A stretch of 64,000 bases of DNA from a bacterium (GTDB taxonomy: Bacteria > Patescibacteriota > Minisyncoccia > UBA6257 > GWB1-50-10): assembly GCA_002686365.1 (NCBI GenBank), contig NZBZ01000018.1, positions 32,286 through 96,285 on the forward strand, read 5' to 3'. The notes under the pieces were generated by a model that made no database searches, was not told where the DNA came from, and saw only the letters and a list, made by a program, of their open reading frames with translations. Of this stretch, positions 17,100 through 38,515 are shown piece by piece. Position numbers and translations under genes: made by a program. How positions within the stretch are numbered: position 1 is the stretch's first letter; each line of letters starts with the position of its first letter.

Positions 17100-17102
17100 A
17101 AA

Positions 17103-17215
17103 ACCTCACTAATATCGAATAGGGCACGAATATACGAATTCTTTACTCGTACATTTCGTATATTAGATATTCGTGCTTGATTTGTATATTCGTGTAGTAT
17201 TTACGACCTTTTCTT
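17103..17215. promoter_or_regulatory. Upstream region with an iterated ACGAATAT / ATATTCGT motif array including the palindrome TACGAATTCTTTA(C/T)TCGTA; ~85% identical to 38404..38515
   Basis: Two ~110 bp intergenic regions align nearly base-for-base, and both lie immediately 5' of minus-strand gene starts. Confidence 0.5.
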
Positions 17216-17229
17216 CCAATATTATTTTT

Positions 17230-17264
17230 CATCCCTCACATAACTTGTTATGTGCGGGATTCAT
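17230..17264. repeat. Mini-copy of the TIR element family: both arms (atccctcacataac / ttatgtgcggga) separated by 3 nt and flanked by ATGA on each side; the arm supplies the stop codon of the Cas4-like gene
   Basis: Sequence comparison with the full copies at 26193, 27809, 31823 and 46376. Confidence 0.5.
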
Positions 17265-18009
17265 GGAGTGCGGCGGCTTTTCTGTACGCGCAATATTCAC
17301 AGCTTGGATCAGACTCTGGAATTTTATCAGCTGAAAGGCAGGCGTGTGCTTCCTTAATTTTTCCTTCTACCCAGTCATCACTTCCTGTGTGCGGAAGGAG
17401 ATGTACGTCAAACTCGAGCTTTTTGTCGAATGCTTTTTTATCCTTATCTGCATTTACATAGACGAAGTATCCTGTATCTGATACTGCGTATCCGTTTTTT
17501 CTTAAAAGCCACTGGTATATTTCCATCTGACGCTTGTATCCGTCTTTATATCCTCCACCCGCGAGAGTAATTTCTCCTCGCGTGCTTGTTGCTTTGTAAT
17601 CTACGACAATTAGTTCTTTCTTTGGATTTACCCAAACGTCATCTACTGCTCCGGTTATAACAAGATTTGTAGGTCTATGCAGAAACTGCACTCCTACAAA
17701 GTTTTCTCTCCACTTATTTAGATCTTCATGCTGAAATGGAACAGCGTCTATTCCATACTCCTCCATAATAGGATGTTTTGATCCCTGCGCGCGGTGAATA
17801 TCGAACTCCTTCTTTAAAAGCTCATCTACTGCAACATTTAAAGTAAATGGAAAGCCGGGCGGACGGTCTGTGCCTAGCCGCCTATCTATATAAAAGCAGC
17901 GCGGACATCCGGTAAAAAGCTCAAGCCTTGATCGGCTTAGTCTGAAGGGCTCACTTGAATTTGGGTTAAAGAGATTTCTTTGTCGTTGTGGGTTATAGCT
18001 CCAGTCCAT
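17248..18009 (-). CDS. Cas4-like PD-(D/E)XK nuclease with Fe-S cysteine cluster (standalone, no CRISPR array nearby)
   Basis: It carries an N-terminal Cys pair (TGCPRCFY), a VVDYKAT (D..K) nuclease motif and a C-terminal CEYC. Confidence 0.45.
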   Translation of the reverse strand: MDWSYNPQRQRNLFNPNSSEPFRLSRSRLELFTGCPRCFYIDRRLGTDRPPGFPFTLNVAVDELLKKEFDIHRAQGSKHPIMEEYGIDAVPFQHEDLNKWRENFVGVQFLHRPTNLVITGAVDDVWVNPKKELIVVDYKATSTRGEITLAGGGYKDGYKRQMEIYQWLLRKNGYAVSDTGYFVYVNADKDKKAFDKKLEFDVHLLPHTGSDDWVEGKIKEAHACLSADKIPESDPSCEYCAYRKAAALHESRT

Positions 18010-18017
18010 GGGTTCGC

Positions 18018-19016
18018 CTATATTTTTTCTTTTACTATCGTCCTCTCAAAGCAAGCCTCGCCCTCTTCATGGGTCCAGCTGTTTGATTCTATATAATACT
18101 GCTCTCTTTCCCCTGCATCTTCCAAAGTTCTTACAGGAATTGGTTTTCTTTCCAGATATACGTATGGTTCTATAAACTCCTTGCCTCTAGTTTCTTTTTC
18201 GAATGCTGCGCATAACTCAAAACTCATCTCTCCTGTAATCCTATATCCATATGTTTCTTCTGTTACTGGATCTCTTAACGGGTCATATCCATTCTCTCTT
18301 GCTTCAATTCCTAATTCATCAAGCGAGCTAGGAAGAGTTGACGTTGGTGCTCCCTGCCTCCAATTCTCTACAATTCTACTCTGGATAATCTGAAGATCCT
18401 GCATTCTTCTATCGTCGTTTTTGTAAGCGCGCTCATCCGCAGGAGAATCAATTAGTACAAATCCAACAATTATTACAGCGAGTACGAAGACAATTGTTTT
18501 CCATACAAATATCTTTTTTGCTGGCAGACCTAATATCTTGTATGACCATGGTGTTTTTTTCACACTCTGTAAGTAGTACCAGAATATTGCTGCAGCTATT
18601 ACAAGAACAGACAAGAATTTCAAGATAAAGCGCGGGGTGAGTTCGCCTCCCAAAAATTCAAAGATAAGGCGCACCAGATCAATAATGATAATTATCGCTG
18701 TTGCAAAGAGTGTAAAATACACCAGCCACTTCCTGATTTTGAGCTCTTTTTTTTCAGGCTCTCTATTATATGCCCTCTCCAGAAATCTTCCTGTTCCCAA
18801 CAGCACTGGAAACATCACGATGAGTACTGCAATACTCCACCTAACTGCGCTGTTTATTCCGTAAAACCTATATCCTCCCTCTGCCGCATCAGGAAAGCCG
18901 ATGTTTATCACTTGCCAGAGAATCGAAATTAGTGCGATTGCTGACCCATATAGCGTGATAATGTGAAGGAGATGTAAAAAGAAATCTCTCGGAGTTGTGT
19001 GTGTTTTATTCTTCAT
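18018..19016 (-). CDS. Polytopic membrane protein, hypothetical
   Basis: It has 6+ hydrophobic segments in its N-terminal half and a soluble C-terminal domain. Confidence 0.4.
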   Translation of the reverse strand: MKNKTHTTPRDFFLHLLHIITLYGSAIALISILWQVINIGFPDAAEGGYRFYGINSAVRWSIAVLIVMFPVLLGTGRFLERAYNREPEKKELKIRKWLVYFTLFATAIIIIIDLVRLIFEFLGGELTPRFILKFLSVLVIAAAIFWYYLQSVKKTPWSYKILGLPAKKIFVWKTIVFVLAVIIVGFVLIDSPADERAYKNDDRRMQDLQIIQSRIVENWRQGAPTSTLPSSLDELGIEARENGYDPLRDPVTEETYGYRITGEMSFELCAAFEKETRGKEFIEPYVYLERKPIPVRTLEDAGEREQYYIESNSWTHEEGEACFERTIVKEKI

Positions 19017-19024
19017 ACTAAATA

Positions 19025-20110
19025 TTATATCCCCTCAATACGCTCTCTGGCAATCTTCTCTGCTGTTTTTCTCGGACTCTCCCCTGTTTCTTTTGCCCTA
19101 TCAAGTATTTCTTTTGTATTTTTTGTAATCTTTTCTTCTACAAGCCTGAACATCTCCTCCTCTCCCTTTTCAACGTGTTCAGCGTAAGATGAGATAACTC
19201 CTCCGGCATTTGCAACAAAATCCGGCACTATTAAGATTCCCTTTTCATGAAGCTCTTCTTCAAGCTCCTCCTTCATTGGGATGTTTGCCCCCTCTACAAT
19301 AATTTTTGCCCTTATATTATTTATATTCTTTTCGTGTATCACGTCTGGAAGCGCTGCAGGGATTAAAACATCCACATCAAGTTCGAAAATTTTTGTTCCC
19401 TCGATCTTTTCTGCATCTTCATATTCTATTACTGACCCCTTATCTTTTTTAATTTCAAGAACTTTTTTCCAGTCTAATCCATCAGGATTATGAATTGCGC
19501 CTTTTGAATCTGACACTGCAACAATTTTTGCTCCCATCTCAGTTAAGAACTGCGCAGCAAAGACTCCTACATTTCCATACCCTTCAATGGCGACTGTTGC
19601 TCCTTTTACTTCTATGCCTTTATGCTCTAGTGCGGTTTTTGCTGCATGCGCTACACCAAACCCTGTTGAACCCAGCTCATGCGGGAGTCCTCCCATGTCA
19701 GCCGGCTTTCCTGTTGCAGCTTTTGAATCTCCATGGCCCTCTATGAGCCACTGCATCTCAATTTCTGCCATATTCATGTCCGGAGCTGCAATATAGTATT
19801 TTGGCGCGTACATTTTGAGAGATTCTCCAAACCACTTCACAATTTCTTTTTTTGTCTTCTCATCTGCGCCTTTTGGGTCAAATGCAATGCCGGACTTGCC
19901 TCCTCCAAACGGAAGGTCTGCTACTGCGTTTTTTAAAGTCATAGCGCGGGCAAGACGGCCTACTTCTTCTTCATTTACAGTTCCGGTCATCCGTATACCT
20001 CCCTTGCTTGGGCCGCGCTTTATATTATCGATAACTGTAAATGCCCAAACATCATGCTTGGGATTGTACATTTTTATAACGTATGCTGGTCCGATTTTGT
20101 CTCCTTCCAT
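19025..20110 (-). CDS. Glu/Leu/Phe/Val dehydrogenase family (size fits leucine/valine dehydrogenase)
   Basis: The GGGK(S)G catalytic lysine motif and a Rossmann-type GYGNVG are present; total length is 361 aa. Confidence 0.7.
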   Translation of the reverse strand: MEGDKIGPAYVIKMYNPKHDVWAFTVIDNIKRGPSKGGIRMTGTVNEEEVGRLARAMTLKNAVADLPFGGGKSGIAFDPKGADEKTKKEIVKWFGESLKMYAPKYYIAAPDMNMAEIEMQWLIEGHGDSKAATGKPADMGGLPHELGSTGFGVAHAAKTALEHKGIEVKGATVAIEGYGNVGVFAAQFLTEMGAKIVAVSDSKGAIHNPDGLDWKKVLEIKKDKGSVIEYEDAEKIEGTKIFELDVDVLIPAALPDVIHEKNINNIRAKIIVEGANIPMKEELEEELHEKGILIVPDFVANAGGVISSYAEHVEKGEEEMFRLVEEKITKNTKEILDRAKETGESPRKTAEKIARERIEGI

Positions 20111-20114
20111 AGAT

Positions 20115-20561
20115 TTAGAATTTTAATAGATTAAGACCAACGGATTCATCATGCTCACGCCCGATTTCTCCTTCTTTTATCTCTATAACTGCTTCGAATG
20201 CGCCGCTTACTATAGCAGATTTGCAGTGCCCTGCATATGTTTTAAAATCTCTGTCTCCAAGGACAATGTGGCAGTGCAAATATGGTTTACCCCGAGCATT
20301 GTCGAGGGGCTTTTCATTCTTTCTTGTGATATTTCCAATAAAACTTGTGACTTCATAATTCTCCCCTTCCAGTGTTTTTTCAGAATACTCCTTCTTATCA
20401 GGGTCGTACCAAAGAAGTTCTGCGCGATTTGTTGCGCCAATTGCAGTGATAGAACCTACTTTTATGTTTTCTTTCTCACAAAGCTCTGTTAGTTTTTCTA
20501 TCGCCTCCTCCCCCTTCTCAACACGAACAATATATGTATTTTCCAGTTTTTTATACTGCAT
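20115..20561 (-). CDS. PPC/DUF296 domain protein
   Basis: GEIVS..GNI...G.P..HCHIVLGD..GHC resembles the PPC (DUF296) fold signature. Confidence 0.45.
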   Translation of the reverse strand: MQYKKLENTYIVRVEKGEEAIEKLTELCEKENIKVGSITAIGATNRAELLWYDPDKKEYSEKTLEGENYEVTSFIGNITRKNEKPLDNARGKPYLHCHIVLGDRDFKTYAGHCKSAIVSGAFEAVIEIKEGEIGREHDESVGLNLLKF

Positions 20562-20563
20562 AC

Positions 20564-21259
20564 TTACTTAATGCTTTTTCCAAATACATACTCATAAATT
20601 GGCGTCCACATAAGCCCGAGAGACAGCGCGAATAAGAGTTCTTCTATTGGATATGAAAAGACCATAACTCCACTCAAGCTCTCAAGCGTCCATGGCACTG
20701 GACCAAATATCTTTTCATATAGAAAAAGCGCAATGATGTATATGGTGAAAAATACTCCTGCACCTGATATTGATGCTAATATAAGGTCCTTTCGCTGGAC
20801 TGCGATTACGCCCCATCCAATTAGACTCGCAAGAATCAGATTGTAGATAATGTTCCATGAAAATATATATGCCCCTGCTATGCTGACTACTGGAAATATA
20901 ATAAGCGAGATAATATGATGATGTTTTTTTGTATTTTTTATTCGGTGCGGAGAGACAACTTCGTAAATCACTGCGGCAAGACCTCCTATTCCCAGAGTAA
21001 ACAATACATCTTCGATAGAAACAATGCCTGTAACTCTTCCCAGATTAAACAATGTGTCCGGATTCCAATAATCCGGAATGACTTGCCAGGTAATGTCTGA
21101 TATCTTTCCAAGAAGTATCAGAATAAACGCGAGCGGGATAATAAGAGCTGTATATATTACTCCGCCCCAAATCACTGGCCTCCTAAGATCCTTCCTTAGC
21201 CAAAAGATTATCCCATCCAGCGCTACAACTGAAAGTGTTGCTAAAAGATACCCGTACAT
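20564..21259 (-). CDS. Lycopene cyclase domain-containing membrane protein (CrtYcd-like)
   Basis: A 7-TM protein with two PxE(E/D)-type motifs (SIEDVLF, YPIEELLF) as in heterodimeric/fused lycopene cyclase domains. The IDI gene at 28417 lies nearby. Confidence 0.45.
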   Translation of the reverse strand: MYGYLLATLSVVALDGIIFWLRKDLRRPVIWGGVIYTALIIPLAFILILLGKISDITWQVIPDYWNPDTLFNLGRVTGIVSIEDVLFTLGIGGLAAVIYEVVSPHRIKNTKKHHHIISLIIFPVVSIAGAYIFSWNIIYNLILASLIGWGVIAVQRKDLILASISGAGVFFTIYIIALFLYEKIFGPVPWTLESLSGVMVFSYPIEELLFALSLGLMWTPIYEYVFGKSIK

Positions 21260-21266
21260 AGAATTA

Positions 21267-21566
21267 CTATATTTTCTCTATTTGCTCTTTAATGTACCCT
21301 ACTTCTTCTTCTACTATCTCACTATCATAATCTCCGCTGTGGGCTGTTTCATTTCCGTATGATGGACGCTTTTGATCTAAATGGATATTGAATATAAATG
21401 TATCGCTCTCTTCTTTAATATAGGCGTGGAAACGGGGATAGTCGCGGCCTATTGGACGGACGCAGTTTAACTCTCCGCGATCAGAGTGTCCTATTGGCGT
21501 ATACCCAAGCCTCCGCACAATGGTCTGCAGATTTTCGTTCTTTGGTTTTTTGATCTTGAGCGTCAC
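21267..21566 (-). CDS. Hypothetical protein (GTG start likely)
   Basis: ORF only. Confidence 0.3.
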   Translation of the reverse strand: MTLKIKKPKNENLQTIVRRLGYTPIGHSDRGELNCVRPIGRDYPRFHAYIKEESDTFIFNIHLDQKRPSYGNETAHSGDYDSEIVEEEVGYIKEQIEKI

Positions 21567-21586
21567 GGTTATTCTTTATTTTATCA

Positions 21587-21616
21587 TATACCCCCATTCG
21601 CGCGAATGGGGGTATA
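21587..21616. promoter_or_regulatory. 30-bp perfect palindrome TATACCCCCATTCGCGCGAATGGGGGTATA immediately upstream of the minus-strand gene 21267..21566, at the left edge of a GC-rich island
   Basis: Read directly; a perfect 15+15 inverted repeat. Confidence 0.5.
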
Positions 21617-21729
21617 TAAGATAGCAATATTGTACTTTGTTTATTGGGGATGATACTATTTTTATAGAGTTTGGGGGCGTCTTCCCGAATCTCTTCTTTC
21701 TTTGAGTCGAATGTGCAAGGGGCAAGGAC

Positions 21730-21996
21730 ATGCTCTTTGAGGAACTTGCTCGACATATCGGAGATGATTCGGAACTCCTTCAAAGGATGCATGAGCTCGT
21801 CCACATGGACGATGCCCAGCTTATGACTCCTGAAGGACGAAAGTCGTGGCAGCGCTTTGGAGAGGCTCTTGATCTTGATAAGCGGATGTGGGATTCGCTT
21901 CGTCGATGGAAAGACCAAGACCAAGACACAAGGCGTAATTGGTGGGGTAGGAGTTCTTTTCAGGAGCAATACATCAGAGTAATGTTCCTGGCGTGA
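21730..21996 (+). CDS. Hypothetical small protein in GC-rich island (W/R/D/Q-rich)
   Basis: + strand ORF with an AGGGG..AAGGA upstream and a terminator hairpin at 22059..22090. Confidence 0.35.
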   Translation: MLFEELARHIGDDSELLQRMHELVHMDDAQLMTPEGRKSWQRFGEALDLDKRMWDSLRRWKDQDQDTRRNWWGRSSFQEQYIRVMFLA

Positions 21997-22058
21997 TCCC
22001 TTCAAACCACTTCTTCTGCCTGTGCTGCCTAGCTATGCCCTGCACGACAACGTGCTCG

Positions 22059-22090
22059 CAAGGCACCCGATGAGCGTAGGGTGTCTTTTT
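22059..22090 (+). terminator. Intrinsic terminator (gcaccc-gatgagcgta-gggtgtc + T8)
   Basis: Hairpin followed by tcttttttt on the + strand. Confidence 0.55.
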
Positions 22091-22113
22091 TTATATAAGC
22101 TATTTCTCCAATG

Positions 22114-22140
22114 GCTACGCAGCATGTGTAGCCGTTAAAA
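22114..22140. repeat. Hairpin motif GGCTACGCAGcatgtGTAGCCGTTAAA; a second copy is at 51068..51097
   Basis: About 26 nt are shared between the two loci with 3 mismatches, and both lie inside GC-rich islands. Confidence 0.45.
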
Positions 22141-22159
22141 TTGAGTTTTTTAAGATTTT

Positions 22160-22687
22160 GTGATATCCTTTTGCCCAGATGAGTGCCCTTATGGAGTGGT
22201 TATCCATTGGGCATTCTCCCGGAAATCAGGATCTCGCAACGTGCGGATTTACCGCACATTCAGAGAGGTAGCCTGCATGCCTACTGCGTACACGAATCTG
22301 GCACGCGAACTTCGGAAGTGCCGAGATGGCTCCGTGAGTCAGGACAATGATCCAGATGCCCGCGAGCTGCTTAGGATTACCGCAGCGCTGATCCAGGGTC
22401 TTCTGGGCCTGACCGATGTCCAGCTGAGGTCCTCGCTTTCGAGGGGACTCTTCGGACTTCCCCTTGACCGTTTCGGTAGGTGCGGTAAGCGGACCATGGA
22501 TGCCGTCAACGCGTTTGCGGACGGATGTCTCTCAGACAGTGCGCGAGACGAGTTCCTTCAGCTCATAGGTTCGTCGAGTACTGAGAGAACTCAAGGGCTC
22601 AACCAGATCTGGAAGATCATTGCTTGCTTAGATCGCGTTGCCGAGCCGACCAGGTCATCCGGCGATCTCGCCGCTGCTTCGGCCTGA
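22160..22687 (+). CDS. Hypothetical protein in GC-rich island (true start possibly the Met at 22277, MPTAYTNLAREL..)
   Basis: ORF only. Confidence 0.3.
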   Translation: MISFCPDECPYGVVIHWAFSRKSGSRNVRIYRTFREVACMPTAYTNLARELRKCRDGSVSQDNDPDARELLRITAALIQGLLGLTDVQLRSSLSRGLFGLPLDRFGRCGKRTMDAVNAFADGCLSDSARDEFLQLIGSSSTERTQGLNQIWKIIACLDRVAEPTRSSGDLAAASA

Positions 22688-22747
22688 CTCTGCCCCGCAG
22701 TCATACTATACGCACAGGGCGTCCCTAACCGGACGCCCATTTCTTTT

Positions 22748-23800: not shown

Positions 23801-23904
23801 GCTCGCGAATTTGCACGAATGTGGACACGAATGTCACGAATATTGGTGAAATTTGTGCTTATATTTGTGCTTATTAGTGATTAAACAAATAATCTCCCAA
23901 GAAG

Positions 23905-24025
23905 GAAGATTCGACTTAGTTATCTTTCCCATTTGGGACTGGATTTGGCACCTTTCTTACAGTGTCACCTGTAAGCGGTTGCCGGCGGATCATTGGGCCA
24001 GTTCCCTTACCGCACTCTTAATAAT
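23905..24025 (-). promoter_or_regulatory. SAM-I (S-box) riboswitch in the metK leader
   Basis: The minus-strand RNA reads UAUUAAGAGUGCGGUAAGGGAACUGGCCCAAUGAUCCGCCGGCAACC GCUUACAGGUGACACUGUAAG AAAGGUGCCAAAUCCAGUCCCAAAUGGGAAAGAUAACUAAG. This matches the SAM-I consensus (AAGAG.GG.AGGGA.CUGGCCC.AUGA..C.GGCAACC ... AAGGUGC.AAAUCC.G ... GAAAGAU.A) and keeps the P1/P3/P4 pairings. Confidence 0.85.
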
Positions 24026-24176
24026 TATTTAATTGTATTTTTATTTTATTATTTATTTTTATAGAAGTCAATATACTTTTGTGGATATTCTTATGTTGAC
24101 AGCAGTTAAGTTAGAGGAGTAGTGTGATTATAGGATTTCGACATGTGCGTTGGGGAGATCCTTGGAGGACACTCCT

Positions 24177-24314
24177 ATGGAGTGGATACTCTTGCTAAGC
24201 GGCATAGCTCTAGTCGTGCTTCTCGTTGTGCTACTGTTTCGCGGCAGCAGAAGACGAGCCAAAGAACGCTGGAAGCGTTCGGCTCGCGCTGACGCAAACA
24301 CGTCTACGGCATAG
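24177..24314 (+). CDS. 45-aa hydrophobic peptide MEWILLLSGIALVVLLVVLLFRGSRRRAKERWKRSARADANTSTA (single TM + basic tail); below the ORF-track size cutoff
   Basis: A GGAGG sits 8 nt upstream of the ATG, a strong terminator follows 40 nt downstream, and the segment is GC-richer than its flanks. Confidence 0.45.
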   Translation: MEWILLLSGIALVVLLVVLLFRGSRRRAKERWKRSARADANTSTA

Positions 24315-24352
24315 ACTCGACGAGTCACTGTAGTCGACGAATCCAACACCGC

Positions 24353-24395
24353 GTTGCATTGGTTCTTCCGTGCAACGCGATTTTATTTTAATTTC
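24353..24395 (+). terminator. Intrinsic terminator (cgcgttgca-ttggttcttccg-tgcaacgcg + attttatttt)
   Basis: A 9-bp GC stem is followed by a T-run. Confidence 0.65.
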
Positions 24396-24403
24396 TGTTC
24401 CTA

Positions 24404-25378
24404 TTACTTAATAAGCCCCTTAAACTCCTCTACCATTGGAACCTGTTCTGGTTCAAGTCCATAGAAATCTGCTGTGTAATATGCAGCCCAATCTGCAAGA
24501 ATAAGAGAAGAAAAAATCTTTTCAAATTCTGTCTCTCCCTCTAGCGCCACTTCTTTTACTGGAAGCTTTCTGTCTTTGTAGAGTTCCTTCAGCACCTTCA
24601 TCCTTTTTTGTGTGCCATCTTGATCACTTGCGTCTTTTAAAAATATGAAAGAGAAATTTTTTGACAGCTCTTTTGTTGGGCTCTGAACATCAAATCCTGT
24701 CATCTCATTATGATTTAATTCCGGCAGGATATTGCAGAATGCAGGAACTTTTCCTGTCTCATTAAACTTAATCTTCCAGTTATATGCTATTGGTCCGTTT
24801 CTGGTTCCAGAGTAAATTACTGGCACCTTTCCTTTTAACTCTTTTGCAAGATCGTGCCCTTTCTGCTCTAGGGCTCCGGGATCCAGTGTTTCTGTAAGCT
24901 CTTTTATTTCCTCAAGCGTGTCCTCTTCTCCTATAAGCTTTAAAAGCCCTTTGAAGCTTAGTCCGAGAGCAGAGCGTGGCTGGATACCAGTATTCGGCAT
25001 CTTAATATATGGAGTCTCTGTTTTTTTCGCGAGTTTGATAAGCTCTCCTCCGGTTGAAATTACTGCTATTTGCAGATTTTTTTCTTTTGCCTTTTCAAAC
25101 GCATCAACTGTTTCTTCTGTATTTCCTGAGTATGAGCTTACGATAATTAAACGATTTTCCAAATCCTCTAAAGAAAGAGGAGGGAGTCCATAATCTTTGT
25201 GAATTATGAGATCAAGATATGGATTCCAGACTTTTAAGAGGTCTGCCGCAAGATGAGACCCGCCCATGCCGATTACTACGAACTTTCCTTTTGATTCAAG
25301 GTTGTCTTTGTTTTCTATCTTTGGCTCATAGGAAAACTGTTTTGGAAAGTTCTCTATGGCAGTTTTCATCCCTCCCAT
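24404..25378 (-). CDS. Bifunctional phosphoglucose/phosphomannose isomerase (SIS-domain, archaeal-type PGI/PMI)
   Basis: N-terminal SIS domain with GMGGSHLAADLL; ~320 aa in length. Confidence 0.65.
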   Translation of the reverse strand: MGGMKTAIENFPKQFSYEPKIENKDNLESKGKFVVIGMGGSHLAADLLKVWNPYLDLIIHKDYGLPPLSLEDLENRLIIVSSYSGNTEETVDAFEKAKEKNLQIAVISTGGELIKLAKKTETPYIKMPNTGIQPRSALGLSFKGLLKLIGEEDTLEEIKELTETLDPGALEQKGHDLAKELKGKVPVIYSGTRNGPIAYNWKIKFNETGKVPAFCNILPELNHNEMTGFDVQSPTKELSKNFSFIFLKDASDQDGTQKRMKVLKELYKDRKLPVKEVALEGETEFEKIFSSLILADWAAYYTADFYGLEPEQVPMVEEFKGLIK

Positions 25379-25477
25379 AACTTTAATATTGTATATTAGA
25401 TTTTTTCGACTTATACATCTTTTTTAAATATTTGCCCTGTTCTTTACGCATAACCCTTAGTTATGTGAGGGATTCAT
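25368..25477. repeat. TIR element copy E (left arm catccctcCcataac, conserved core ttttcgacttatacat, right arm gttatgtgagggattcat), ending at the PGI/PMI start
   Basis: Alignment with copies A-D. Confidence 0.6.
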
Positions 25478-25484
25478 GCTCATA

Positions 25485-26195: not shown

Positions 26196-26297
26196 CCCTC
26201 ACATAAAACACACTTTGAGATATTCATGTGTGCTATTTTTATGTTTTCGACTGTAAACATACTTTGTTTTCTCCCGCACGTTATGTGAGGGATTCAT
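26193..26297. repeat. TIR element copy A (catccctcacataa ... gttatgtgagggattcat) filling the junction between genes 26281..26601 and 25485..26195
   Basis: See the finding on the TIR element family. Confidence 0.65.
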
Positions 26298-27811: not shown

Positions 27812-27917
27812 CCCTCACATAACACGCACTTCAAGGCACCTTTTCGTGTGCGTGCTATTTTAATGCTTTCGACTGTATACATAATATTTCTCTTTACGTG
27901 TTATGTGAGGGACTCAT
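27809..27917. repeat. TIR element copy B
   Basis: catccctcacataac...ctttcgactgtatacat...gttatgtgagggactcat; flanked by ATGA on the minus strand, giving the stop of the DHFR-like gene and the start of the GH-like gene. Confidence 0.65.
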
Positions 27918-31825: not shown

Positions 31826-31932
31826 CCCTCACATAACACGAACTCCAAGGCGTCTTTTTGTACGTGTATTACTTTAATGGTTTCGACTGCAAGCATGTGT
31901 TTTTTTTCCTGCACGTTATGTGAGGGAATCAT
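31823..31932. repeat. TIR element copy C
   Basis: catccctcacataac...tttcgactgcaagcat...gttatgtgagggaatcat; the ATGA at each end gives the stop of the 2-hydroxyacid dehydrogenase gene and the start of eno. Confidence 0.65.
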
Positions 31933-32927
31933 TCTTCCGGCACTACGTTTTCAGGCTTGCCCTTTATAAATCCTTTGATGTTTCCAATTGTAATGTCTAG
32001 AATCCTTTCATGCGCCTCTACGGAGTTGAATGCATCATGCGGAGTGATTAAGACATTATCCATGTGTATCAAAATGTGATCCTGAAGCATGGTTTCCGCG
32101 TCCTCCCCCTTTGCCGGCTTGTAATGCTTTTCTTTTAGCGCAACCTCTTCTTCGAGCACGTCGAGTCCTGCTCCTGCAATTTTCTTTTTCTTTAACGCCT
32201 CTACCAAAGCCTCAGTTTCTACAAGCCCGCCTCTGGCTGCATTTATTAGATATGCGGTGGGCTTCATGAGTTTTATGTTCTTTTTATTTATTAAGTGATT
32301 CGTATGTTTATTTAGCGGGCAGTGAAGTGTTACAAAGTCAGACTTTTTAAGAAGCGCCTCAAGCGATACATACTTATATCCCATCTTTTTTGCATATGCC
32401 GCATCTTTTACAACATCAAAGGCAATAATATTCATGTCGAATCCTCTTGCAATGCGAACTACCTCTTTTCCGATTCGTCCTGTTCCTACAACTCCGATAG
32501 TCTTTCCCTTAAGATCAATTCCTCGAAGTCCCATAAATTCAAATCTGCTTGTTTCTTTTAGCCTATCAATTCCCCAGTATATTTTTCTAGAAAGATTTAA
32601 AATCAGCCCGAATGTAAATTCTGCCACTGTATTGTCTCCATATCCCGGAACATAAGAAGCTGTAATCCCTCTTTTTTTGCACTCCTTAAGATCAATATGA
32701 TCAAAGCCAGTTGAGCGTGTCGTGACGAATTTCAGATTTGGCAGCTTATCAAGCATTGCCTTGTCCATTTTTGAATCCACAAATACAGAAATTACTTCTG
32801 CGTCTTTTGCATCTTTGGCGTTTTTTAGTGTAAGCGGACTCTTAACAAACTTCAGTTCATGAGAAGAGAAGTTCTTTTTTAAATGGGCTTCTTCCCAGCC
32901 CTCAAAGCTAAAGAATGAGATGTTCAT
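31929..32927 (-). CDS. D-isomer-specific 2-hydroxyacid dehydrogenase family (D-lactate/phosphoglycerate dehydrogenase-like)
   Basis: NAD-binding GVVGTGRIGKEV and the catalytic domain order are present. Confidence 0.8.
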   Translation of the reverse strand: MNISFFSFEGWEEAHLKKNFSSHELKFVKSPLTLKNAKDAKDAEVISVFVDSKMDKAMLDKLPNLKFVTTRSTGFDHIDLKECKKRGITASYVPGYGDNTVAEFTFGLILNLSRKIYWGIDRLKETSRFEFMGLRGIDLKGKTIGVVGTGRIGKEVVRIARGFDMNIIAFDVVKDAAYAKKMGYKYVSLEALLKKSDFVTLHCPLNKHTNHLINKKNIKLMKPTAYLINAARGGLVETEALVEALKKKKIAGAGLDVLEEEVALKEKHYKPAKGEDAETMLQDHILIHMDNVLITPHDAFNSVEAHERILDITIGNIKGFIKGKPENVVPEE

Positions 32928-32965
32928 ATATTTAAGACCTAAGACTTAAGACATAGGATTTAGTA

Positions 32966-35380
32966 CTATTTTTTACGACGTTTTTCTTCTTTTGCGATTC
33001 TTAATATTGCCGGAATAACTGTATCTGGATTTAGAGAGATGCTCTCGATTCCTTCTCGCACCAGAAGCTCTGCAAATCCCTGATGGTCAGATGGAGCCTG
33101 CCCGCAGATTCCCACATACTTATTCCTCTTTCTGCATATTTCTATTGTTCTTGTTATAAGCTCTATAACAGACGCGTCCTTCTCATTCCCAATATGCGCG
33201 ATTATTTCCGAATCTCTATCGAGCCCCAGAGTGAGCTGCGTGAGATCGTTTGAACCAATAGACATTCCATCAAACAAATTGAGAAACTCATCAGCTCTTA
33301 ATATATTTGACGGAATCTCGCACATTACATACACCTTAAGACTTTTGTCTTTCTTGCGGTCGAGTCCGTTCTCTTTCATTACCTCCAGCACCTGCCTTCC
33401 CTCTTCCGGAGTTCTGCAGAATGGAATCATAGGAGTAATGTTTGTAAGCCCCATCTTCTCTCTGGCTTTTTTCAGGGCCCTACACTCGAGTCCAAATGCT
33501 TTTTTAAACTTTTTATCATAATATCGGGACGCTCCTCTCCATCCAAGCATTGGGTTCTCCTCCTCTGGTTCATAGAGCTCTCCCCCTAAGAGGGTCCTGT
33601 ATTCGTTTGTCTTAAAGTCAGAGAAACGAATGATGACCTCATGCGGATAGAATGCTGCGCCTATCTTTCCTATTCCTTCTGCAATTTCATCTACATAGTA
33701 GTTTGCCTTATTTGCATATCCTAGTGTTTTCTTCTCAATCTGTCTCGCGATTTTCCTTTTTCCCTTATCCTCTGACCTGCTTAATCTGCTATATTCCAAA
33801 AGAGCATTTGGATGCATGCCTATGTGCGATGCAATAATAAACTCTAATCTTCCAAGTCCCACACCTTGGGCAGGAAGATGATGATTCTTCATTGCATCAT
33901 CCGGAGAACCAATATTTACCATTACTTTTGTTCTTGTCTCTGGAATCTTTTGAAGCCTGTGCTCTATGATGCTAAATGGAAGACTTCCTTTGTAGACTAT
34001 TCCAGTTTCTCCGGATGAACAGTCTGCTGTTACCTCTTTTCCGGTTTTTAGTTTTTTCGTTGCGCTTTCTGTTCCTACAATGCAGGGAATGCCGAGTTCG
34101 CGTGAGACAATTGCTGCGTGGCTCGTGCGCCCGCCCTCGTCAGTAATAATTGCGGATGCAATCTTCATAATCGGCTCCCAGTCCGGATCAGTAATTTCCG
34201 TAACAAGAATTTCTCCTTTCTGAAACCTCTTTATGCCTCTTACATCTTTTATAACCCGCACCTTGCCTGTTGCAATCTTTGTTCCCACTGCAACTCCTTC
34301 GATTATTGGCTTACCCTCTCCTTTTAGACGAAACTCCTGTATAACATTTTTATCTTTGGAGGAGTGGACAGTCTCTGGACGAGCTTGGACAATAAAAAGT
34401 TTTTCAGTCTTCCCATCCTTTGCCCACTCAATATCCATTGGCTGGTGTGTCTTTCGTTTCTTTGAAAAGTACTTTTCAATCTCTACACACCATTTCGCAA
34501 GCTTAACAATCTCTTTTTCTGTAATACAAAACTTTTCTCTATCTTTTTTTGAAACCTTCACTACTTTTGTGCCATTTGGCGCGTAGATCATTTTTATATC
34601 TTTGCGCCCAATGTTTGTTTCAATGATTGCCTTGTAGCCCTTATCAAGAGTTGGCTTGAACATAGTAAACTCATCTGGAGTTACCTTGCCCTGAACTACC
34701 ATCTCACCTAGTCCGTATGAGCCGTTCATTGTTACCACATCCTCAAAGCCGGTTTCAGTGTCTAAGGTGAATGCAACACCTGATGAGGCAAGGTCAGAGC
34801 GCACCATGAGCTGCACCCCCACAGAGAGTGCTGCATCAAAGTGTGAAAACTTCTTGTCTACCCGATAAGAAATAGCGCGGTTGGTAAAAAGCGAGGCAAT
34901 ACACTTCTTTGTTGCCTCAAGCACTCCACTTACTCCCCTGACATTTAGGAATGTTTCCTGCTGGCCTGCGAAAGAAGCGTCCGGCAGATCTTCTGCTGTG
35001 GCAGATGAACGTACTGCAACATCCGGATTATCTCCAAGCTCTTTGTATGCCTTCTCTATCTCCTTTTCAATATGCTTGGGGAGTTTTGATTTTAGAATCA
35101 CCTCGCGCACCTCTCTACCCCTTTTCTGAAGGTTGTGAATATCGTGAGTATCGAGTCCGCGCAGAATTCTTCTTATTTCTTTTTCAAGCCCTGCCTCTTT
35201 AAGAAATAATCTGTATGCATGAGCTGTGAGCGCAAAGCCGTTTGGAACATTTATTCCAAGCTTTGTAAGCCCTTGATACATCTCACCAAGTGCTGCATTT
35301 TTTCCGCCTGCAAGAGGAACATCTTTAATACTAAGGTCTTTAAACCACAGAATGAGAGCATTTTTTCTAGATTTTTCCAT
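32966..35380 (-). CDS. ppsA: Phosphoenolpyruvate synthase (PEP-utilising enzyme, pyruvate water dikinase)
   Basis: N-terminal ATP-grasp-like domain, a mobile His domain (GGRTSHAAIVSRELGIPCIVG) and a C-terminal PEP-utilising TIM barrel; ~800 aa. Confidence 0.8.
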   Translation of the reverse strand: MEKSRKNALILWFKDLSIKDVPLAGGKNAALGEMYQGLTKLGINVPNGFALTAHAYRLFLKEAGLEKEIRRILRGLDTHDIHNLQKRGREVREVILKSKLPKHIEKEIEKAYKELGDNPDVAVRSSATAEDLPDASFAGQQETFLNVRGVSGVLEATKKCIASLFTNRAISYRVDKKFSHFDAALSVGVQLMVRSDLASSGVAFTLDTETGFEDVVTMNGSYGLGEMVVQGKVTPDEFTMFKPTLDKGYKAIIETNIGRKDIKMIYAPNGTKVVKVSKKDREKFCITEKEIVKLAKWCVEIEKYFSKKRKTHQPMDIEWAKDGKTEKLFIVQARPETVHSSKDKNVIQEFRLKGEGKPIIEGVAVGTKIATGKVRVIKDVRGIKRFQKGEILVTEITDPDWEPIMKIASAIITDEGGRTSHAAIVSRELGIPCIVGTESATKKLKTGKEVTADCSSGETGIVYKGSLPFSIIEHRLQKIPETRTKVMVNIGSPDDAMKNHHLPAQGVGLGRLEFIIASHIGMHPNALLEYSRLSRSEDKGKRKIARQIEKKTLGYANKANYYVDEIAEGIGKIGAAFYPHEVIIRFSDFKTNEYRTLLGGELYEPEEENPMLGWRGASRYYDKKFKKAFGLECRALKKAREKMGLTNITPMIPFCRTPEEGRQVLEVMKENGLDRKKDKSLKVYVMCEIPSNILRADEFLNLFDGMSIGSNDLTQLTLGLDRDSEIIAHIGNEKDASVIELITRTIEICRKRNKYVGICGQAPSDHQGFAELLVREGIESISLNPDTVIPAILRIAKEEKRRKK

Positions 35381-35433
35381 ATTTTCTTGCTTTCTATTAT
35401 ACCCTTTTTCTTAAAGGCGGTATAATAGCTGTA

Positions 35434-35640
35434 ATGGAATCTATCTTCTCTACTATTACCCTGTTTGCCTTTCCCATTATTATTGTGGTGTTTATTATCA
35501 TCACCATTGTGCTTGAACACCACTGGAAGAAGTATAGCGTTGGAATAGACATCCTGAAAAGAATACGAAAAATATACTATCGCGTATCAGCAGTACTCTT
35601 TATTTTTGTGGCAATTTCATTTGCTCTTTCTTTTTTATGA
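35434..35640 (+). CDS. Small membrane protein (2 TM)
   Basis: ORF with two hydrophobic helices, directly preceding the bPH_2 gene. Confidence 0.35.
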   Translation: MESIFSTITLFAFPIIIVVFIIITIVLEHHWKKYSVGIDILKRIRKIYYRVSAVLFIFVAISFALSFL

Positions 35641-36152
35641 TTAAACTGTACGAAAATGAAAAAGTTTTAGCAGAGATACGCAAACACTGGTTTGTGATTG
35701 CTGGTGAGGCCATAGCTCTTGGCGCGCTTGCTGTTGCGCCTCTTATTGTCCTCCCTATTCTCCAGAGCACGCTTCGTAGTATTTCTTCGTTTGAGGGTAA
35801 TATCCCATTTTTTACCTTTTTGTTTTTCTATTCTGTGTGGCTTGTTTTTATCTGGATTCTTTTCTTTGTTGCGTGGACAAACTACTACTTGGATGTGCTT
35901 ATTGTTACGAATAAGCGAATTGTTGATATTGAACAGGTTGCCTTATTCTCACGAGACCATGTTTCAGTGCCCCTGCGAAATGTTGAAGATGTGAAAGTAG
36001 AGATTGCTGGTCTCCTTCCCTCTCTTTTTAAGTATGGTGATCTGCATGTGCAGACTGCAGGAGAATCAAAGGAGGTTATTATACCCCGAATCAATCGACC
36101 TCATGATGCGCGGCGCCGCATTATGGAGGAGTACCACAAGTTGCACGAGTAG
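35637..36152 (+). CDS. bPH_2/YdbT-like (DUF304) membrane-associated PH-domain protein
   Basis: N-terminal 2-TM hairpin followed by a PH-like domain (VLIVTNKRIVDIEQ..). Confidence 0.45.
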   Translation: MIKLYENEKVLAEIRKHWFVIAGEAIALGALAVAPLIVLPILQSTLRSISSFEGNIPFFTFLFFYSVWLVFIWILFFVAWTNYYLDVLIVTNKRIVDIEQVALFSRDHVSVPLRNVEDVKVEIAGLLPSLFKYGDLHVQTAGESKEVIIPRINRPHDARRRIMEEYHKLHE

Positions 36153-36235
36153 TGTTAAAAAAATTCCCAATTTTCAATTTCTAATTTCCAATACATTTTG
36201 TTGCCCTAGTAACCTACTTTAGGTATTATGCGACT

Positions 36236-37996
36236 ATGAATGATATACGATCCTGTCAAAACTGTAAGCAGGATTTTTCTTTATCTCAGGACGAGAAGAC
36301 GTTTTATATTAAGATAAAAGTTCCAGAGCCCACCTTCTGTCCTGCATGCAGATTCCAGCGGCGTGTTGCTGTTCGTAACGAACGCACTCTTTATAAGCGA
36401 AAGTGCGGGCTTTGCGGAAACTTAATGCTTGCAATGTACGGGCCAGAGAAGCCATTCCCTGTGTACTGCAAAGACTGCTGGTGGTCTGATAAGTGGGATC
36501 CAACTGCCTATGAGCTTGCATATGACTGGGAAAAGCCCTTTTTCGTACAGTTCCGTTCTCTTTTAGAAAAAGTGCCTCGCCCTAATCTCATTACGCAGAA
36601 TGCCCCAAACAGCGACTACTCAAACTACGTTGTTGATGTAAAAAACTGCTATCTCTGCTTTGGCACCATTGAATCTGAAGACTGCATGTATGGAGCTCCG
36701 TACGAATCAAAGCACTGCGTAGATACCTATCTTGCCAGAGAGTGCGAGTACTGCTACGAATGCCTTGATTGCGAGAAGCTTTCAAGCTCTCTTTTTGCGC
36801 AGGATTCCTCTGCATCACTTAATCTCCTGCACTGCTTTGACTGTAAGAACTGCCATGACTGCATTGGATGCGTGGGATTGAGAAATAAAAAATATCATAT
36901 ATACAATAAGGAGTATCAAAAAGAAGAGTTTGAGAAGATGCAAAATGAGATTTTCTCACGCGGAAGAGAGGGGTTTGAGGAGGTGCGCGTGGAATTTGAA
37001 AAGCTCAAGCTTGCTATTCCCCATCGATTTGCCACAACACTAAAATGCGAGCGCGTGAGCGGCGACCATATTGTCCAGTCAAAAAATGCGGAGCACTCGT
37101 TTGATATAAAAAAGCTGGAAGATGCAACGCACTGTATTCGCATGATTGACGGGCGGGACGTACATGATACGAACTACTGTGAGTTTATGGAACTTACCTA
37201 CGACTACCTTGGATTTTTGCGGGACAGCAATATTCGATTTTCAAATACGTGCGGAGAGTGTGAAGATGTTCAGTATTCTGATTTCTGTCAGGGCTCTTCT
37301 CATCTTTTTGGGTGTATTGGGCTTCGTAAGAAGGAGCACTGCATTTTTAATAAAGAATACGAAAAGCAGGAGTATGAAGAAATGGTTTTGAAAATAGAGG
37401 AGCAGATGAACAGTATTCCGTACAAGGATGCGAAGGGGCGGGAGTATAGATATGGGGAGTTTTTCCCAATTGAGCTGTCTCCTTTGGCTTACAATGAATC
37501 TGTGGCTCAGGAGTTCTTTCCTCTTTCAAAAGAAGAGGCAGTAAGTCAAGGATATTCATGGCGGGACCCGGATGATCAGGGGTATGATGTTGCTATGCAG
37601 ACTTCTCAAATTCCTAATACTATCGAGGAAACAGGCAGTGATATTTTGAATCAGGTAATTGGCTGTGAGCACGCGGGCACATGTAATGAAAAGTGCACGA
37701 CTGCATTTAAAATTACCTCTATGGAACTTCAGTTTTATCAAAGGATGAGGATCCCTATTCCTACCCTCTGCCCGAACTGCAGGCACTATGCTCGGCTTGG
37801 GAGACGTACTCCGTTTCAGGTGTGGAGACGAAAGTGCATGTGCGGAGGAAAAGCATCAGATGGAGGCATGTATTCAAACACGAGCGCTCACTCACACAAT
37901 GAAGAACACTGTGCAAATGAATTCGATACTTCATATGCTCCAGAACGTGACGAGGTTGTCTACTGTGAAGAATGCTACAATGCAGAAATTGTCTGA
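36236..37996 (+). CDS. 586-aa cysteine-rich protein with many CxxC pairs (multiple zinc-ribbon-like modules); unknown function
   Basis: Regularly spaced CxxC..CxxC pairs run throughout, and the C-terminus reads ..VVYCEECYNAEIV. Confidence 0.55.
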   Translation: MNDIRSCQNCKQDFSLSQDEKTFYIKIKVPEPTFCPACRFQRRVAVRNERTLYKRKCGLCGNLMLAMYGPEKPFPVYCKDCWWSDKWDPTAYELAYDWEKPFFVQFRSLLEKVPRPNLITQNAPNSDYSNYVVDVKNCYLCFGTIESEDCMYGAPYESKHCVDTYLARECEYCYECLDCEKLSSSLFAQDSSASLNLLHCFDCKNCHDCIGCVGLRNKKYHIYNKEYQKEEFEKMQNEIFSRGREGFEEVRVEFEKLKLAIPHRFATTLKCERVSGDHIVQSKNAEHSFDIKKLEDATHCIRMIDGRDVHDTNYCEFMELTYDYLGFLRDSNIRFSNTCGECEDVQYSDFCQGSSHLFGCIGLRKKEHCIFNKEYEKQEYEEMVLKIEEQMNSIPYKDAKGREYRYGEFFPIELSPLAYNESVAQEFFPLSKEEAVSQGYSWRDPDDQGYDVAMQTSQIPNTIEETGSDILNQVIGCEHAGTCNEKCTTAFKITSMELQFYQRMRIPIPTLCPNCRHYARLGRRTPFQVWRRKCMCGGKASDGGMYSNTSAHSHNEEHCANEFDTSYAPERDEVVYCEECYNAEIV

Positions 37997-38075
37997 GGAG
38001 ATTGCCTGCCCCGTGGGAGCGGAGCGACTCTACGGGGTGTACTGCGAGGAGTGCTACAATAGCGAGATTGTATAA
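37997..38075 (+). pseudogene. GC-rich duplicated copy of the 3' end of gene 36236..37996 (..EEIACPVGAERLYGVYCEECYNSEIV*), in the +1 frame; remnant of a homologous gene tail
   Basis: The peptide ..YCEECYN(A/S)EIV* is encoded twice in tandem. The second copy differs mostly at synonymous third positions and is visibly GC-richer. Confidence 0.5.
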
Positions 38076-38145
38076 AGATAAACCAAAACCCGCCCTGAGC
38101 AATGTCGAAGGGCGGGCTTTTGGTTTGAGCTCAAATCAAAATTTA

Positions 38146-38403
38146 CTATGCTGGATTTACTGGTTCTGCTGGCGCTTCTCCTCCTTTCTTTTCTCCGCCG
38201 CAGCAGTTCCTACTACATACGCCCTTGTGCGTTACAGCTTCAAAGACTGCTGCAAGACCAATTACGATGTAGATAATTCTGGAGATAATGTTGGCCTGCC
38301 CGCCAAATAATTCCCCAATGTCCCACCCAATAACTCCAATAAGCAGCAAGTTTATACCTCCAATAATGAGTAGGATAAACGTGACAATGTGTAATGCCTT
38401 CAT
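38146..38403 (-). CDS. DUF378 family small membrane protein
   Basis: MKALHIVTFILLIIGGINLLLIGV...ISRIIYIVIGLAAV matches the DUF378 pattern. Confidence 0.6.
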   Translation of the reverse strand: MKALHIVTFILLIIGGINLLLIGVIGWDIGELFGGQANIISRIIYIVIGLAAVFEAVTHKGVCSRNCCGGEKKGGEAPAEPVNPA

Positions 38404-38515
38404 GGGAACTTCACGAATATCGAATTGGGTACGAATATACGAATTCTTTATTCGTATAGTTCGTATATTAGATATTCGTGCTTGATTCGCATATTCGTGT
38501 ATTTTCGACCTTTCT
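38404..38515. promoter_or_regulatory. Second copy of the ACGAATAT/ATATTCGT motif-array upstream region (paralogous to 17103..17215)
   Basis: Near-identical alignment to the region upstream of the glutaredoxin-like gene. Confidence 0.5.

Follow-up and report, generated by a model that had tools for sequence, protein, structure and literature searches.

Heptad-array palindromes in the leaders of three unrelated genes of a patescibacterial contig: candidate copies of a small REP/MITE-like element

The stretch of DNA analysed here (the window) comprises 64,000 nucleotides of contig NZBZ01000018.1 from assembly GCA_002686365.1 (positions 32,286 to 96,285 of the forward strand). Its GC content is 43%, and its Pfam content, which includes DUF5671, Q_salvage, a short MetK of 350 amino acids and bact-PGI, together with the neighbours of its proteins places it in a marine genome of the candidate phyla radiation (CPR, Patescibacteria) near Wolfebacteria. 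The window forms part of a 105-kb scaffold from TARA Oceans (scaffold_103, ERZ2773065). Three genes on the minus strand, which code for a glutaredoxin/NrdH-like protein, a DUF378 membrane protein and MetK, are each preceded by a non-coding array of heptad repeats, termed arrays A, B and C, respectively. On balance, we lean towards the view that the three sites are copies of a small, selfish, palindromic element reminiscent of repetitive extragenic palindromes (REP) and miniature inverted-repeat transposable elements (MITEs), which would have reached the leaders of unrelated genes by insertion or copying.

Read in gene sense, each site consists of forward boxes (CACGAAT, TACGAAT, CACTAAT, CACAAAT), a short loop and reverse boxes (ATTCGTG, ATTCGTA, ATTCGAT, ATTAGTG), with the ATG a few nucleotides further on; the whole is a long imperfect palindrome. 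With a degenerate heptad, every site holds four boxes on the plus strand and three to four on the minus strand, the spacing between them being mostly ~7-12 nt, with some pairs ~19 nt apart. Array A, in mRNA sense, runs through CACGAAT, CACGAAT, TACGAAA and TACGAGT, a 5-nt loop, and then ATTCGTA, ATTCGTG, ATTCGAT and ATTAGTG, and ends in GAGG followed by the glutaredoxin ATG at 17099. Array B is identical in a second sample (L001) and contains the exact palindrome TACGAATAAAGAATTCGTA. A preliminary description of this DNA had credited both regions with three direct and three inverted copies of ACGAATAT and with the palindrome TACGAATTCTTTATTCGTA. Exact copies of ACGAATAT number three in the first region and four in the second, and the reported count is reached only when the degenerate forms (C/T)ACGAAT, CACTAAT and ATCGAAT are admitted; the palindrome is exact in the DUF378 copy, but has one mismatch in the other. 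Across the window, ACGAATAT has eight exact matches versus 1.7 expected, and all eight lie in the three intergenic leaders, i.e. the motif is not equally frequent in coding sequence. When up to one mismatch is tolerated, 14 of 78 matches fall inside 313 nt, which is 0.49% of the window. A composite pattern of the architecture matched exactly the three sites in the window and gave no match in 100 shuffles.

A repeat search of the window returned the long copies A and B as a direct repeat of 95 nt with 91% identity, which bears out the earlier claim that near-identical regions precede two unrelated genes. If indels are allowed, the likeness runs ~17 nt further through GAAA(A)GGTCG(T/A)AAATAC, whereas on the other side it ends at both start codons. 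Therefore, no coding sequence was duplicated, and the possibility that the two regions are parts of a larger duplication including coding sequence can be set aside. Since A and B have spacers and flanks in common, and not only boxes, copy-and-paste is a better account than convergent operators; the sequence comparison shows that A and B arose by a recent duplication that took in these spacers and flanks. In three genomes, window-type arrays have the motif GAAA(A)GGTCG(A/T) on the side facing away from the gene (elsewhere at L133 1312 and 1934, and on the minus strand of L142 at ~243-249, equivalent to L148 169-175). The motif is also kept at L002 20-32, before a DUF378 ortholog without the array; it could mark a target site or an end of the element, or serve as a signal for expression.

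Array C lies between an S-adenosylmethionine (SAM) riboswitch of the SAM-I class and metK. In sense orientation it reads CACTAAT, CACAAAT, CACAAAT, loop, three times ATTCGTG, and ATTCGCG; the plus strand accordingly has CACGAAT at 23814, 23826 and 23835 and GCGAAT at 23805. The three ATTCGTG repeats ahead of the ATG had been noted before, but not the boxes that oppose them, namely CACTAAT at 23873 and the two CACAAAT at 23851 and 23863. On account of these opposing boxes, array C has the palindromic architecture of A and B in a degenerate version. In the relatives L246 (GCA_030689865.1), L247 and L251 (GCA_030650935.1; MetK 84%) the riboswitch leader is kept and array C is absent, the leader running from GGGAGATTGTTTGTTT directly into ATGATT. 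The junctions are TTTGTTT/AATCAC...GCGAGC/ATGATT in the window versus TTTGTTT/ATGATT in the relatives. Thus, aptamer and terminator are kept, and the array amounts to 82 extra nucleotides seen only in this genome; the aptamer-terminator unit is complete without array C, which lies outside the conserved part. By this comparison, the metK copy is shown to be an insertion relative to close relatives. In the latter, the metK Shine-Dalgarno (SD) sequence GGGAG is located inside the terminator, 11 nt from the ATG, and in the window this distance has grown to 93 nt, unless the hairpin forms. L248 and L249 (MetK 85%) carry another insert at the same spot of the metK leader, 47 nt of GCCTAAN tandem repeats. 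The interval between terminator and ATG of metK thus looks like a hot spot for short-repeat insertions. The L248 insert (3095-3142) consists of tandem GCCTAAN heptads with no inverted arm.

Table 1. Positions of the heptad arrays and associated features in the window
Feature	Position	Strand	Remarks
Array A, long copy	17102..17196	minus	upstream of glutaredoxin/NrdH-like gene
5' flank motif GAAAAGGTCGTAAATAC	17197..17213	minus	common to both long copies, array A side
Glutaredoxin/NrdH-like gene, 78 aa	16863..17099	minus	Pfam Glutaredoxin, E=8e-20
Array B, long copy	38407..38501	minus	upstream of DUF378; last base 3 nt short of ATG at 38403
5' flank motif AGAAAGGTCGAAAATAC	38499..38515	minus	array B counterpart of GAAAAGGTCGTAAATAC
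DUF378 membrane-protein gene, 85 aa	38146..38403	minus	Pfam DUF378, E=2e-14
Array C	23801..23882	minus	82-nt insertion; riboswitch-terminator U-tract on one side, metK ATG on the other
metK, 350 aa	22748..23800	minus	downstream gene of array C
SAM-I riboswitch aptamer	23917..24027	minus	Rfam, 65.7 bits
Riboswitch terminator hairpin and U-tract	23891..23911	minus	terminator scan; upstream of array C
Second repeat family, ~100 nt	25370-25471, 26196-26291, 27812-27911, 31826-31926, 46379-46474		compact hairpin 17233-17258 next to array A

The leaders of the other two genes were compared in the few closest relatives that could be fetched. L246 is syntenic with the window through the genes for DUF5671, PDDEXK_1 and glutaredoxin. 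Its spacer between the PDDEXK and glutaredoxin genes (16672-16831) is occupied by a palindrome of 160 nt with the arms CTCTAAAT/CCTAAG, the sequence of which is unrelated to array A. Two more palindromic arrays of a third type (GTAAATA/TAGAAAA) are present at 681-746 and 15831-15907 of L246, where the counterpart spacers of the window measure 8-38 nt, and the PDDEXK_1 gene of L246 has arrays on both sides. Upstream of the DUF378 ortholog of L002 (76% amino acid identity), GAGAAAAGGTCGA is kept and is followed by 28 unrelated nucleotides and the ATG, with no array. As the arrays are missing or replaced at orthologous leaders, they are lineage-specific insertions or replacements and not conserved control regions. 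The region between the HD-domain gene and array B (38517-38650, minus strand) contains a strong terminator at 38622-38648 followed by an extended -10-like sequence, TGGTATAAT; a second hairpin with a U-rich tail (38535-38555), located after TGGTATAAT, might act as an attenuator before the DUF378 leader or terminate a small RNA that precedes this leader.

The same architecture was found in many other genomes. Genomes and phages were scanned with a pattern of one forward and two reverse boxes, and metagenomes with a ACGAATAT-type pattern. GTDB species genomes yielded at least 120 loci, which among the matches listed belong mainly to Chloroflexota, Bacteroidota and Acidobacteriota, and metagenomes yielded at least 118 loci, many of them in CPR-like contexts. 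Two phage contigs of IMG/VR carry CACGAAT arrays: L003 (3780-3905; 116-226) has one array of six forward and four reverse boxes between two structural-type genes, and L004 (60-135) has, close to the contig end, an array with two boxes of each kind, which is separated by 6 nt from the GTG start codon of a terminase large subunit similar to lambda gpA. Nearly all listed loci carry more boxes than the scan pattern demanded. Their consensus is a T-run, GCCACGAAT, 0-2 nt, GCACGAAT TT, an AT-rich loop of 10-30 nt, ATTCGTG, 1-3 nt, ATTCGTGGC and an A-run. Several loci have two to five arrays per 8 kb, and in one metagenome-assembled genome (MAG) of Chloroflexota, copies that are nearly the same are bounded by longer terminal inverted repeats. 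Heptads of other sequence (CACAGAT and CACGGAT, for example) also occur in the fetched loci; arrays of the ACGAAT type far outnumber them in the 1.6 Mb fetched, a figure that is biased because the loci were chosen for that heptad.

The genes flanking the arrays are arranged in tandem in 56-68 cases of the genome set, convergently in 18 and divergently in 10-12; the corresponding numbers for the metagenome set are 43, 4 and 3. Arrays of the wider family lie between convergent genes, within ribosomal-protein operons and after stop codons, and are not confined to promoter regions. This distribution of contexts therefore speaks for REP-like or MITE-like repeats and not for operators. Judged from these pattern matches, the architecture is shown to be widespread, multi-copy and present in every kind of intergenic context. 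CPR-type arrays separate the cistrons S12/S7, L23/L2, tuf/S10, nusG/L11, secY/adk and ftsA/ftsZ, and further CPR-like sites are located upstream of tuf, rpsF and infA; CPR-like loci in translation operons are L136, L146/L223, L153, L177, L189, L212, L225, L227 and L243.

Three groups of loci on other CPR-like contigs have long stretches of the 3' arm in common with the arrays of the window. These are L133/L147, upstream of a paralog of a type IV secretion pilin (TAAAGAATTCGTATATTCGTA in common), L142/L148 from the 0.1-um fraction of Hainich groundwater, upstream of ribosomal protein L10, and L233, upstream of an RseP-like protease (ATTCGTATATTCGTGCTATATTCGATATTCGTGAAGTCTCATG in common). The 5' motif GAAAGGTCG(A/T) precedes the arrays in L133/L147 and L142/L148 too, and is absent at the metK and L233 copies. 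Counted over five independent contexts, the element has a single orientation and ends a few nucleotides before an ATG with an SD-like GTGAGG, GTGAAG or AGGAG. Since related copies with a common 3' arm stand before different genes, the unit moves as a block from gene to gene and from genome to genome. Moreover, because a conserved heptad recurs at helical-turn-like spacing at hundreds of loci, the heptads are very probably recognition sites for a protein, as far as can be read from the sequence.

When the open reading frames (ORFs) adjoining 163 arrays were clustered, no family dominated except for a group of 125-aa proteins that matched TIGR04256, 'GxxExxY protein' (E=2e-42), which corresponds to Pfam PDDEXK_3 (PF13366) with a PD-(D/E)XK fold. 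This is also the commonest Pfam family among 102 small immediate neighbours of arrays, with six members, all other families having three or fewer. In the array-selected loci (L018, L062, L125, L083, L047, L109, L024, L084, L208, L160 and L155), each of the 12 GxxExxY genes has an array or half-array within 130 nt, versus 24.5% of 1402 other ORFs (Fisher p=5e-8). The array usually begins ~10 nt or less from the GxxExxY stop codon, and several of the genes are flanked on both sides. An independent set was drawn from seven plasmid records (L253-L259), the GxxExxY genes of which were picked without reference to arrays. In L256 and L258 the gene lies between two to three CACAGAG and three CTCTGTG arms, that is, in the loop of the palindrome. 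The gene of L253 is placed between CACACGGATTCG and CGAATCCGTGT, that of L255 is flanked by ATCAGTG/ATCCGTG boxes, that of L257 is followed by a GCGGAT palindromic array, and that of L259 is preceded by three CGCGAAG. CACnnAT is the form common to the boxes of the plasmid records, among which CACGGAT arms are found as well. In both sets, the GxxExxY genes are squeezed into short spacers that separate housekeeping genes, such as fabD/fabG and radA/FAD-dependent protein. A survey of the PD-(D/E)XK superfamily from 2012 listed the function of this family as 'unknown' and noted 'multiple transfers' (PMC3424549). We found no homologs in viral contigs and no solved structure for GxxExxY. The PDDEXK_1 gene adjoining array A was considered as a GxxExxY relative and rejected (hhalign probability 0.2%).

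Similarities to known systems are manifold. Like the REP and bacterial interspersed mosaic elements (BIMEs) of Enterobacteria and Pseudomonas, which are paired with REP-associated tyrosine transposases (RAYTs), the arrays are short imperfect palindromes in extragenic or intercistronic positions, multi-copy, contained in mRNAs and variable between lineages, and elsewhere they accompany a small, dedicated nuclease gene with the repeats on either side. Unlike REP/BIMEs, their arms are tandem 7-mers with a period of ~8-12 nt (some pairs ~19 nt) and not a single stem, and they end in GCCACGAAT/ATTCGTGGC or (C/T)ACGAAT with no conserved GTAG or CGTC head. The gene associated with them elsewhere encodes the PD-(D/E)XK protein GxxExxY of 125 amino acids, not an HUH Y1 transposase, and is missing from the window. 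No Y1 transposase family is among the 25 commonest Pfam families of the 102 array neighbours, and the Pfam tables of ~81 kb of the scaffold are likewise without a transposase. With MITEs, such as the Correia elements of Neisseria and the cyanobacterial Nezha, the arrays have in common that they are non-coding, ~60-160 nt long and bounded by terminal inverted repeats, that they are present or absent at orthologous sites and near-identical within a genome, and that they may supply or alter the expression signals of neighbours; they differ in that repeats are nested within the inverted repeats, that no transposase partner of the insertion sequence (IS) type is known and that a target-site duplication was not detected.

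Other systems match in part only. Intervening sequences of 23S rRNA harbour a small selfish ORF in a long stem; folding of the stem makes the insertion tolerable, and RNase III excises it. The GxxExxY genes of L256 and L258 in the loop of a heptad-array stem are similar to these, but the copies of the window have no ORF and are situated in mRNA leaders and not in rRNA. Multi-site operators and iterons (plasmid Rep iterons, NarL heptamers, the heptamer boxes of P1 parS) resemble the arrays in their direct and inverted 7-mers at helical-turn spacing, implying cooperative binding; however, such sites are tied to and conserved with one replicon or regulon, whereas the arrays are interspersed, insertion-polymorphic and independent of context. 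Integron attC sites are imperfect palindromes, too, with two boxes per arm, a variable centre and a position directly after small cassette-like genes. Their terminal core sites are RYYYAAC/GTTRRRY, in contrast to the terminal boxes CACGAAT/ATTCGTG found here, and neither an integrase nor a cassette array is present. BLAST of the window element and of a consensus array against phages and plasmids hit no annotated feature. In the literature searched, which covers the subject incompletely and leaves room for an earlier description, we found no account of CACGAAT-type heptad palindromes or of an association of GxxExxY with repeats, and reports on REP-like elements in these phyla contained nothing on such arrays; matches to the sequences themselves were to primers only.

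Scans for expression signals gave little. No sigma-70-like promoter is predicted at the arrays, array C sitting behind the riboswitch terminator, and none of the three arrays is spanned as a whole by a predicted terminator; the sole internal match, a short hairpin at 23802-23819 (3' end of array C) followed by CATGATTTTA, is probably spurious. In the wider family, a T-run precedes and an A-run follows the palindrome on both strands, which is unlike an intrinsic terminator. A search of the window with Rfam 15, run with the gathering cut-off and with E-value limits, detected the SAM riboswitch only, the arrays giving just sub-threshold noise from eukaryotic miRNA hairpins even at E<=1, and none of 18 array loci had an Rfam 15 match at its array. 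Three further candidates were dismissed. A small ORF that is open in A and B (with an in-frame indel of 3 nt) was considered as a leader peptide, but its frame is not kept in L133 or L002. The likeness of CGAAT-N5-ATTCG to CGAAC-N4-GTTCG, the LexA box of Gram-positive bacteria, suggested an SOS box, which is excluded by the variable loops and the interspersed distribution. The LexA motifs of Bacteroidetes are GGA-N5-TCC and CTAA-N5-TTAG (PMC8565304). Promoters of extracytoplasmic function (ECF) sigma factors or of sigma-54 do not fit in spacing and bases.

The preliminary description had interpreted the arrays as a regulon-level operator or iteron array for a binding protein, with two of three targets related to redox or SAM. 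That the sites are non-random, non-coding and very probably bound by a protein stands. Co-control of nrdH, DUF378 and metK by a DNA-binding regulator could in addition draw on the strong enrichment of the motif in, and its restriction to, three upstream regions, on box distances of ~9-12 and 19-22 nt, which would suit cooperative binding on one face of the helix, and on the fact that every copy abuts a ribosome-binding site and an ATG. Nevertheless, we hold such a regulon to be rather unlikely, as orthologous leaders are without arrays, the two long copies share sequence outside the boxes, neither A and B nor their immediate surroundings contain a predicted sigma-70-like promoter while C is downstream of a riboswitch terminator, members of the family occur between convergent genes and inside operons, and no candidate regulator gene adjoins the arrays. 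The redox/SAM link, resting on three genes, found no comparative support. Alternatively, the arrays might act as RNA, namely as selected hairpins of 5' untranslated regions (5'-UTRs) or intercistronic regions, possibly bound by a protein or cut by RNase III, that tune mRNA stability or translation. In this case it would be understandable that all copies of the window belong to transcribed leaders (with certainty for metK), that they form long hairpins with sense-strand z-scores of -2.5 to -4.7, that only a few nucleotides separate the 3' arm from the SD sequence or ATG in the five contexts, and that arrays seem to be enriched in highly expressed operons. The predicted folding energies of sense and antisense strand are -25.2 and -28.2 kcal/mol for array A, -28.9 and -38.8 kcal/mol for array B (z = -4.7 and -6.3) and -14.7 and -32.9 kcal/mol for array C, which means that the antisense strand folds better in all three arrays; the metK sense hairpin contains A-C mismatches. 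By GC skew, the minus strand is rich in G, but this does not suffice to explain the higher stability of hairpins on the plus strand. For arrays elsewhere in tandem contexts, the sense strand is the better folder slightly more often, at 38:30 (n=68, p=0.17) and 26:18 (n=44, p=0.15), and this asymmetry over 112 arrays is not significant. Arrays of Chloroflexota have a recurrent pair of non-complementary spacers, tgc opposite gaa. Taken together, the better antisense folds, the lack of a significant strand bias and the tgc/gaa spacers therefore argue against a purely RNA-structural constraint, and agree with a recognition of single boxes on DNA, or on either strand. With no Rfam family match and no arrays in orthologous leaders, we regard a function as RNA as unlikely.

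A third possibility is a portable promoter-plus-leader cassette (GAAAGGTCG, array, SD sequence), spread by recombination and driving small, highly expressed genes. The same orientation and SD-like 3' end in every copy, the presence of GAAAGGTCG in three genomes and the DUF378 leader, which looks replaced and not interrupted when compared with that of L002, are in line with this scenario. Yet the element contains no predicted hexamers of a promoter-like kind, the 5' motif is missing from the copies at metK and L233, and DUF378 has the extended -10-like TGGTATAAT further upstream. As a promoter behind the metK riboswitch terminator would, in addition, bypass the riboswitch, a cassette seems quite improbable. 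Finally, slippage or palindrome amplification of short AT-rich repeats could create arrays in place, with neither a dedicated protein nor mobility. Related genomes indeed have different heptads in the same spacer (metK leader of L248, glutaredoxin spacer of L246), and CACAGAT and CACGGAT heptads are found in the same loci. We consider this origin highly unlikely, since particular heptad and spacer sequences come back at loci far apart and in more than one genome, the association with GxxExxY is tight and ACGAAT-type arrays exceed others in the fetched sequence, with the selection bias stated above.

Returning to a REP/MITE-like element, we propose that the heptads would be bound by a protein that mobilises or maintains it; by analogy with other phyla, the candidate would be a small PD-(D/E)XK protein of the GxxExxY family, and the solo arrays would be gene-less, MITE-like derivatives. 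Next to start codons, copies may be retained because the insert can pair with itself and, in the surviving orientation, supplies an SD-like end (GTGAGG/GTGAAG); at metK, the folded hairpin of array C would bring the SD sequence back near the ATG. The constant orientation could then be explained by a survivorship filter, as only the orientation that supplies a ribosome-binding site would be tolerated, although orientation is also the best argument for the functional alternatives. Any effects on the expression of nrdH, DUF378 and metK, for instance through a 5'-UTR hairpin or an altered SD-to-AUG spacing, would be a by-product and not a common regulatory programme. As a tentative extension that we consider possible but doubtful, the heptad palindromes (general form CACnnAT, here CACGAAT/TACGAAT) would be the cis-acting ends of an unrecognised class of tiny selfish elements mobilised or maintained by GxxExxY. 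The gene-bearing form would consist of arm, 125-aa ORF and arm, solo palindromes being far more numerous; gene-less derivatives would have spread through many phyla, CPR included, and settled in intergenic spacers, at operon junctions, in mRNA leaders and in phage genomes, and heptad specificity would co-evolve with the GxxExxY protein. If all this is true, a tempting but false prediction of a redox/SAM regulon would be removed from a CPR genome, and reduced CPR genomes would carry active small repeats that land precisely in translation-initiation regions, including the gap between a riboswitch terminator and a start codon, which would affect how leaders, ribosome-binding sites and riboswitch platforms of these genomes are read. 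It would also give the large orphan family GxxExxY (PF13366) a testable function, recognition of CACnnAT heptad arrays, and would explain a very common type of intergenic palindrome in Bacteroidota, Chloroflexota and Acidobacteriota, of which we found no description in the literature searched.

Several observations weigh against the proposed mobile element. The source scaffold has only three arrays in ~81 kb (the 64-kb window plus flanks of 9.5 and 7.9 kb), with no further array in the flanks, and according to the Pfam gene tables these ~81 kb contain neither GxxExxY nor a transposase or other obvious mobilising gene. The junction comparison with relatives revealed no target-site duplication at the metK insertion, and the DUF378 leader differs from that of L002 by a replacement and not by a clean insertion. 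The link between GxxExxY and arrays is correlative and drawn from other phyla. The scan patterns impose part of the architecture, the counts and the taxonomy obtained with them are lower bounds that are not representative, and ORFs in the fetched loci were called with a crude longest-ORF heuristic. CPR-like arrays are unusually frequent in operons of ribosomal proteins and translation factors, as assessed by eye from N-termini and a partial Pfam scan, and arrays near such highly expressed genes could have a function. Likewise, uniform orientation and abutment on start codons are not expected of a purely random mobile element without a selection filter.

The window contains a second repeat family (Table 1), with terminal inverted repeats TCCCTCACATAAC / GTTATGTGAGGGA and a conserved core (TTTCGACTGTA..CAT). 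Its members have the form ATGA, nTCCCTCACATAAC, ~70 nt, GTTATGTGAGGG, ATGA and fill five spacers exactly from the stop codon to the next ATG; GTTATGTGAGGG has 12 matches versus 0.16 expected. In L246, the corresponding junctions are overlapping or ~20 nt apart. This suggests that the second family inserts into overlapping stop/start ATGA sites, where it would supply an SD-like GAGGG. The second family shows independently that small palindromic insertions at sites of translation initiation are tolerated in this reduced genome.

Further small repeats were encountered. A 44-nt repeat is present three times with 89-93% identity (40328-40371, 40761-40804 and 41102-41145); on the minus strand, it forms a GC-rich hairpin with a T-run right after each of three tandem paralogous genes for small membrane proteins, and hence represents ordinary duplicated terminators. 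Perfect palindromes of 16-17 nt, ATATACCCCCATTCGC/GCGAATGGGGGTATAT at 21586-21617 of the window and ACCCTACCCCTAATTCG/CGAATTAGGGGTAGGGT at 12076-12111 of L246, are probably bidirectional terminators. Intron-containing tRNAs have been reported for CPR. In the source scaffold outside the window, L260 6796-7265 has a tRNA-like start (GGCGTAGCTCAGTGGTAGAGCA...) that is separated by several hundred nucleotides from a tRNA-like 3' end, and this locus may be such an intron-containing tRNA.

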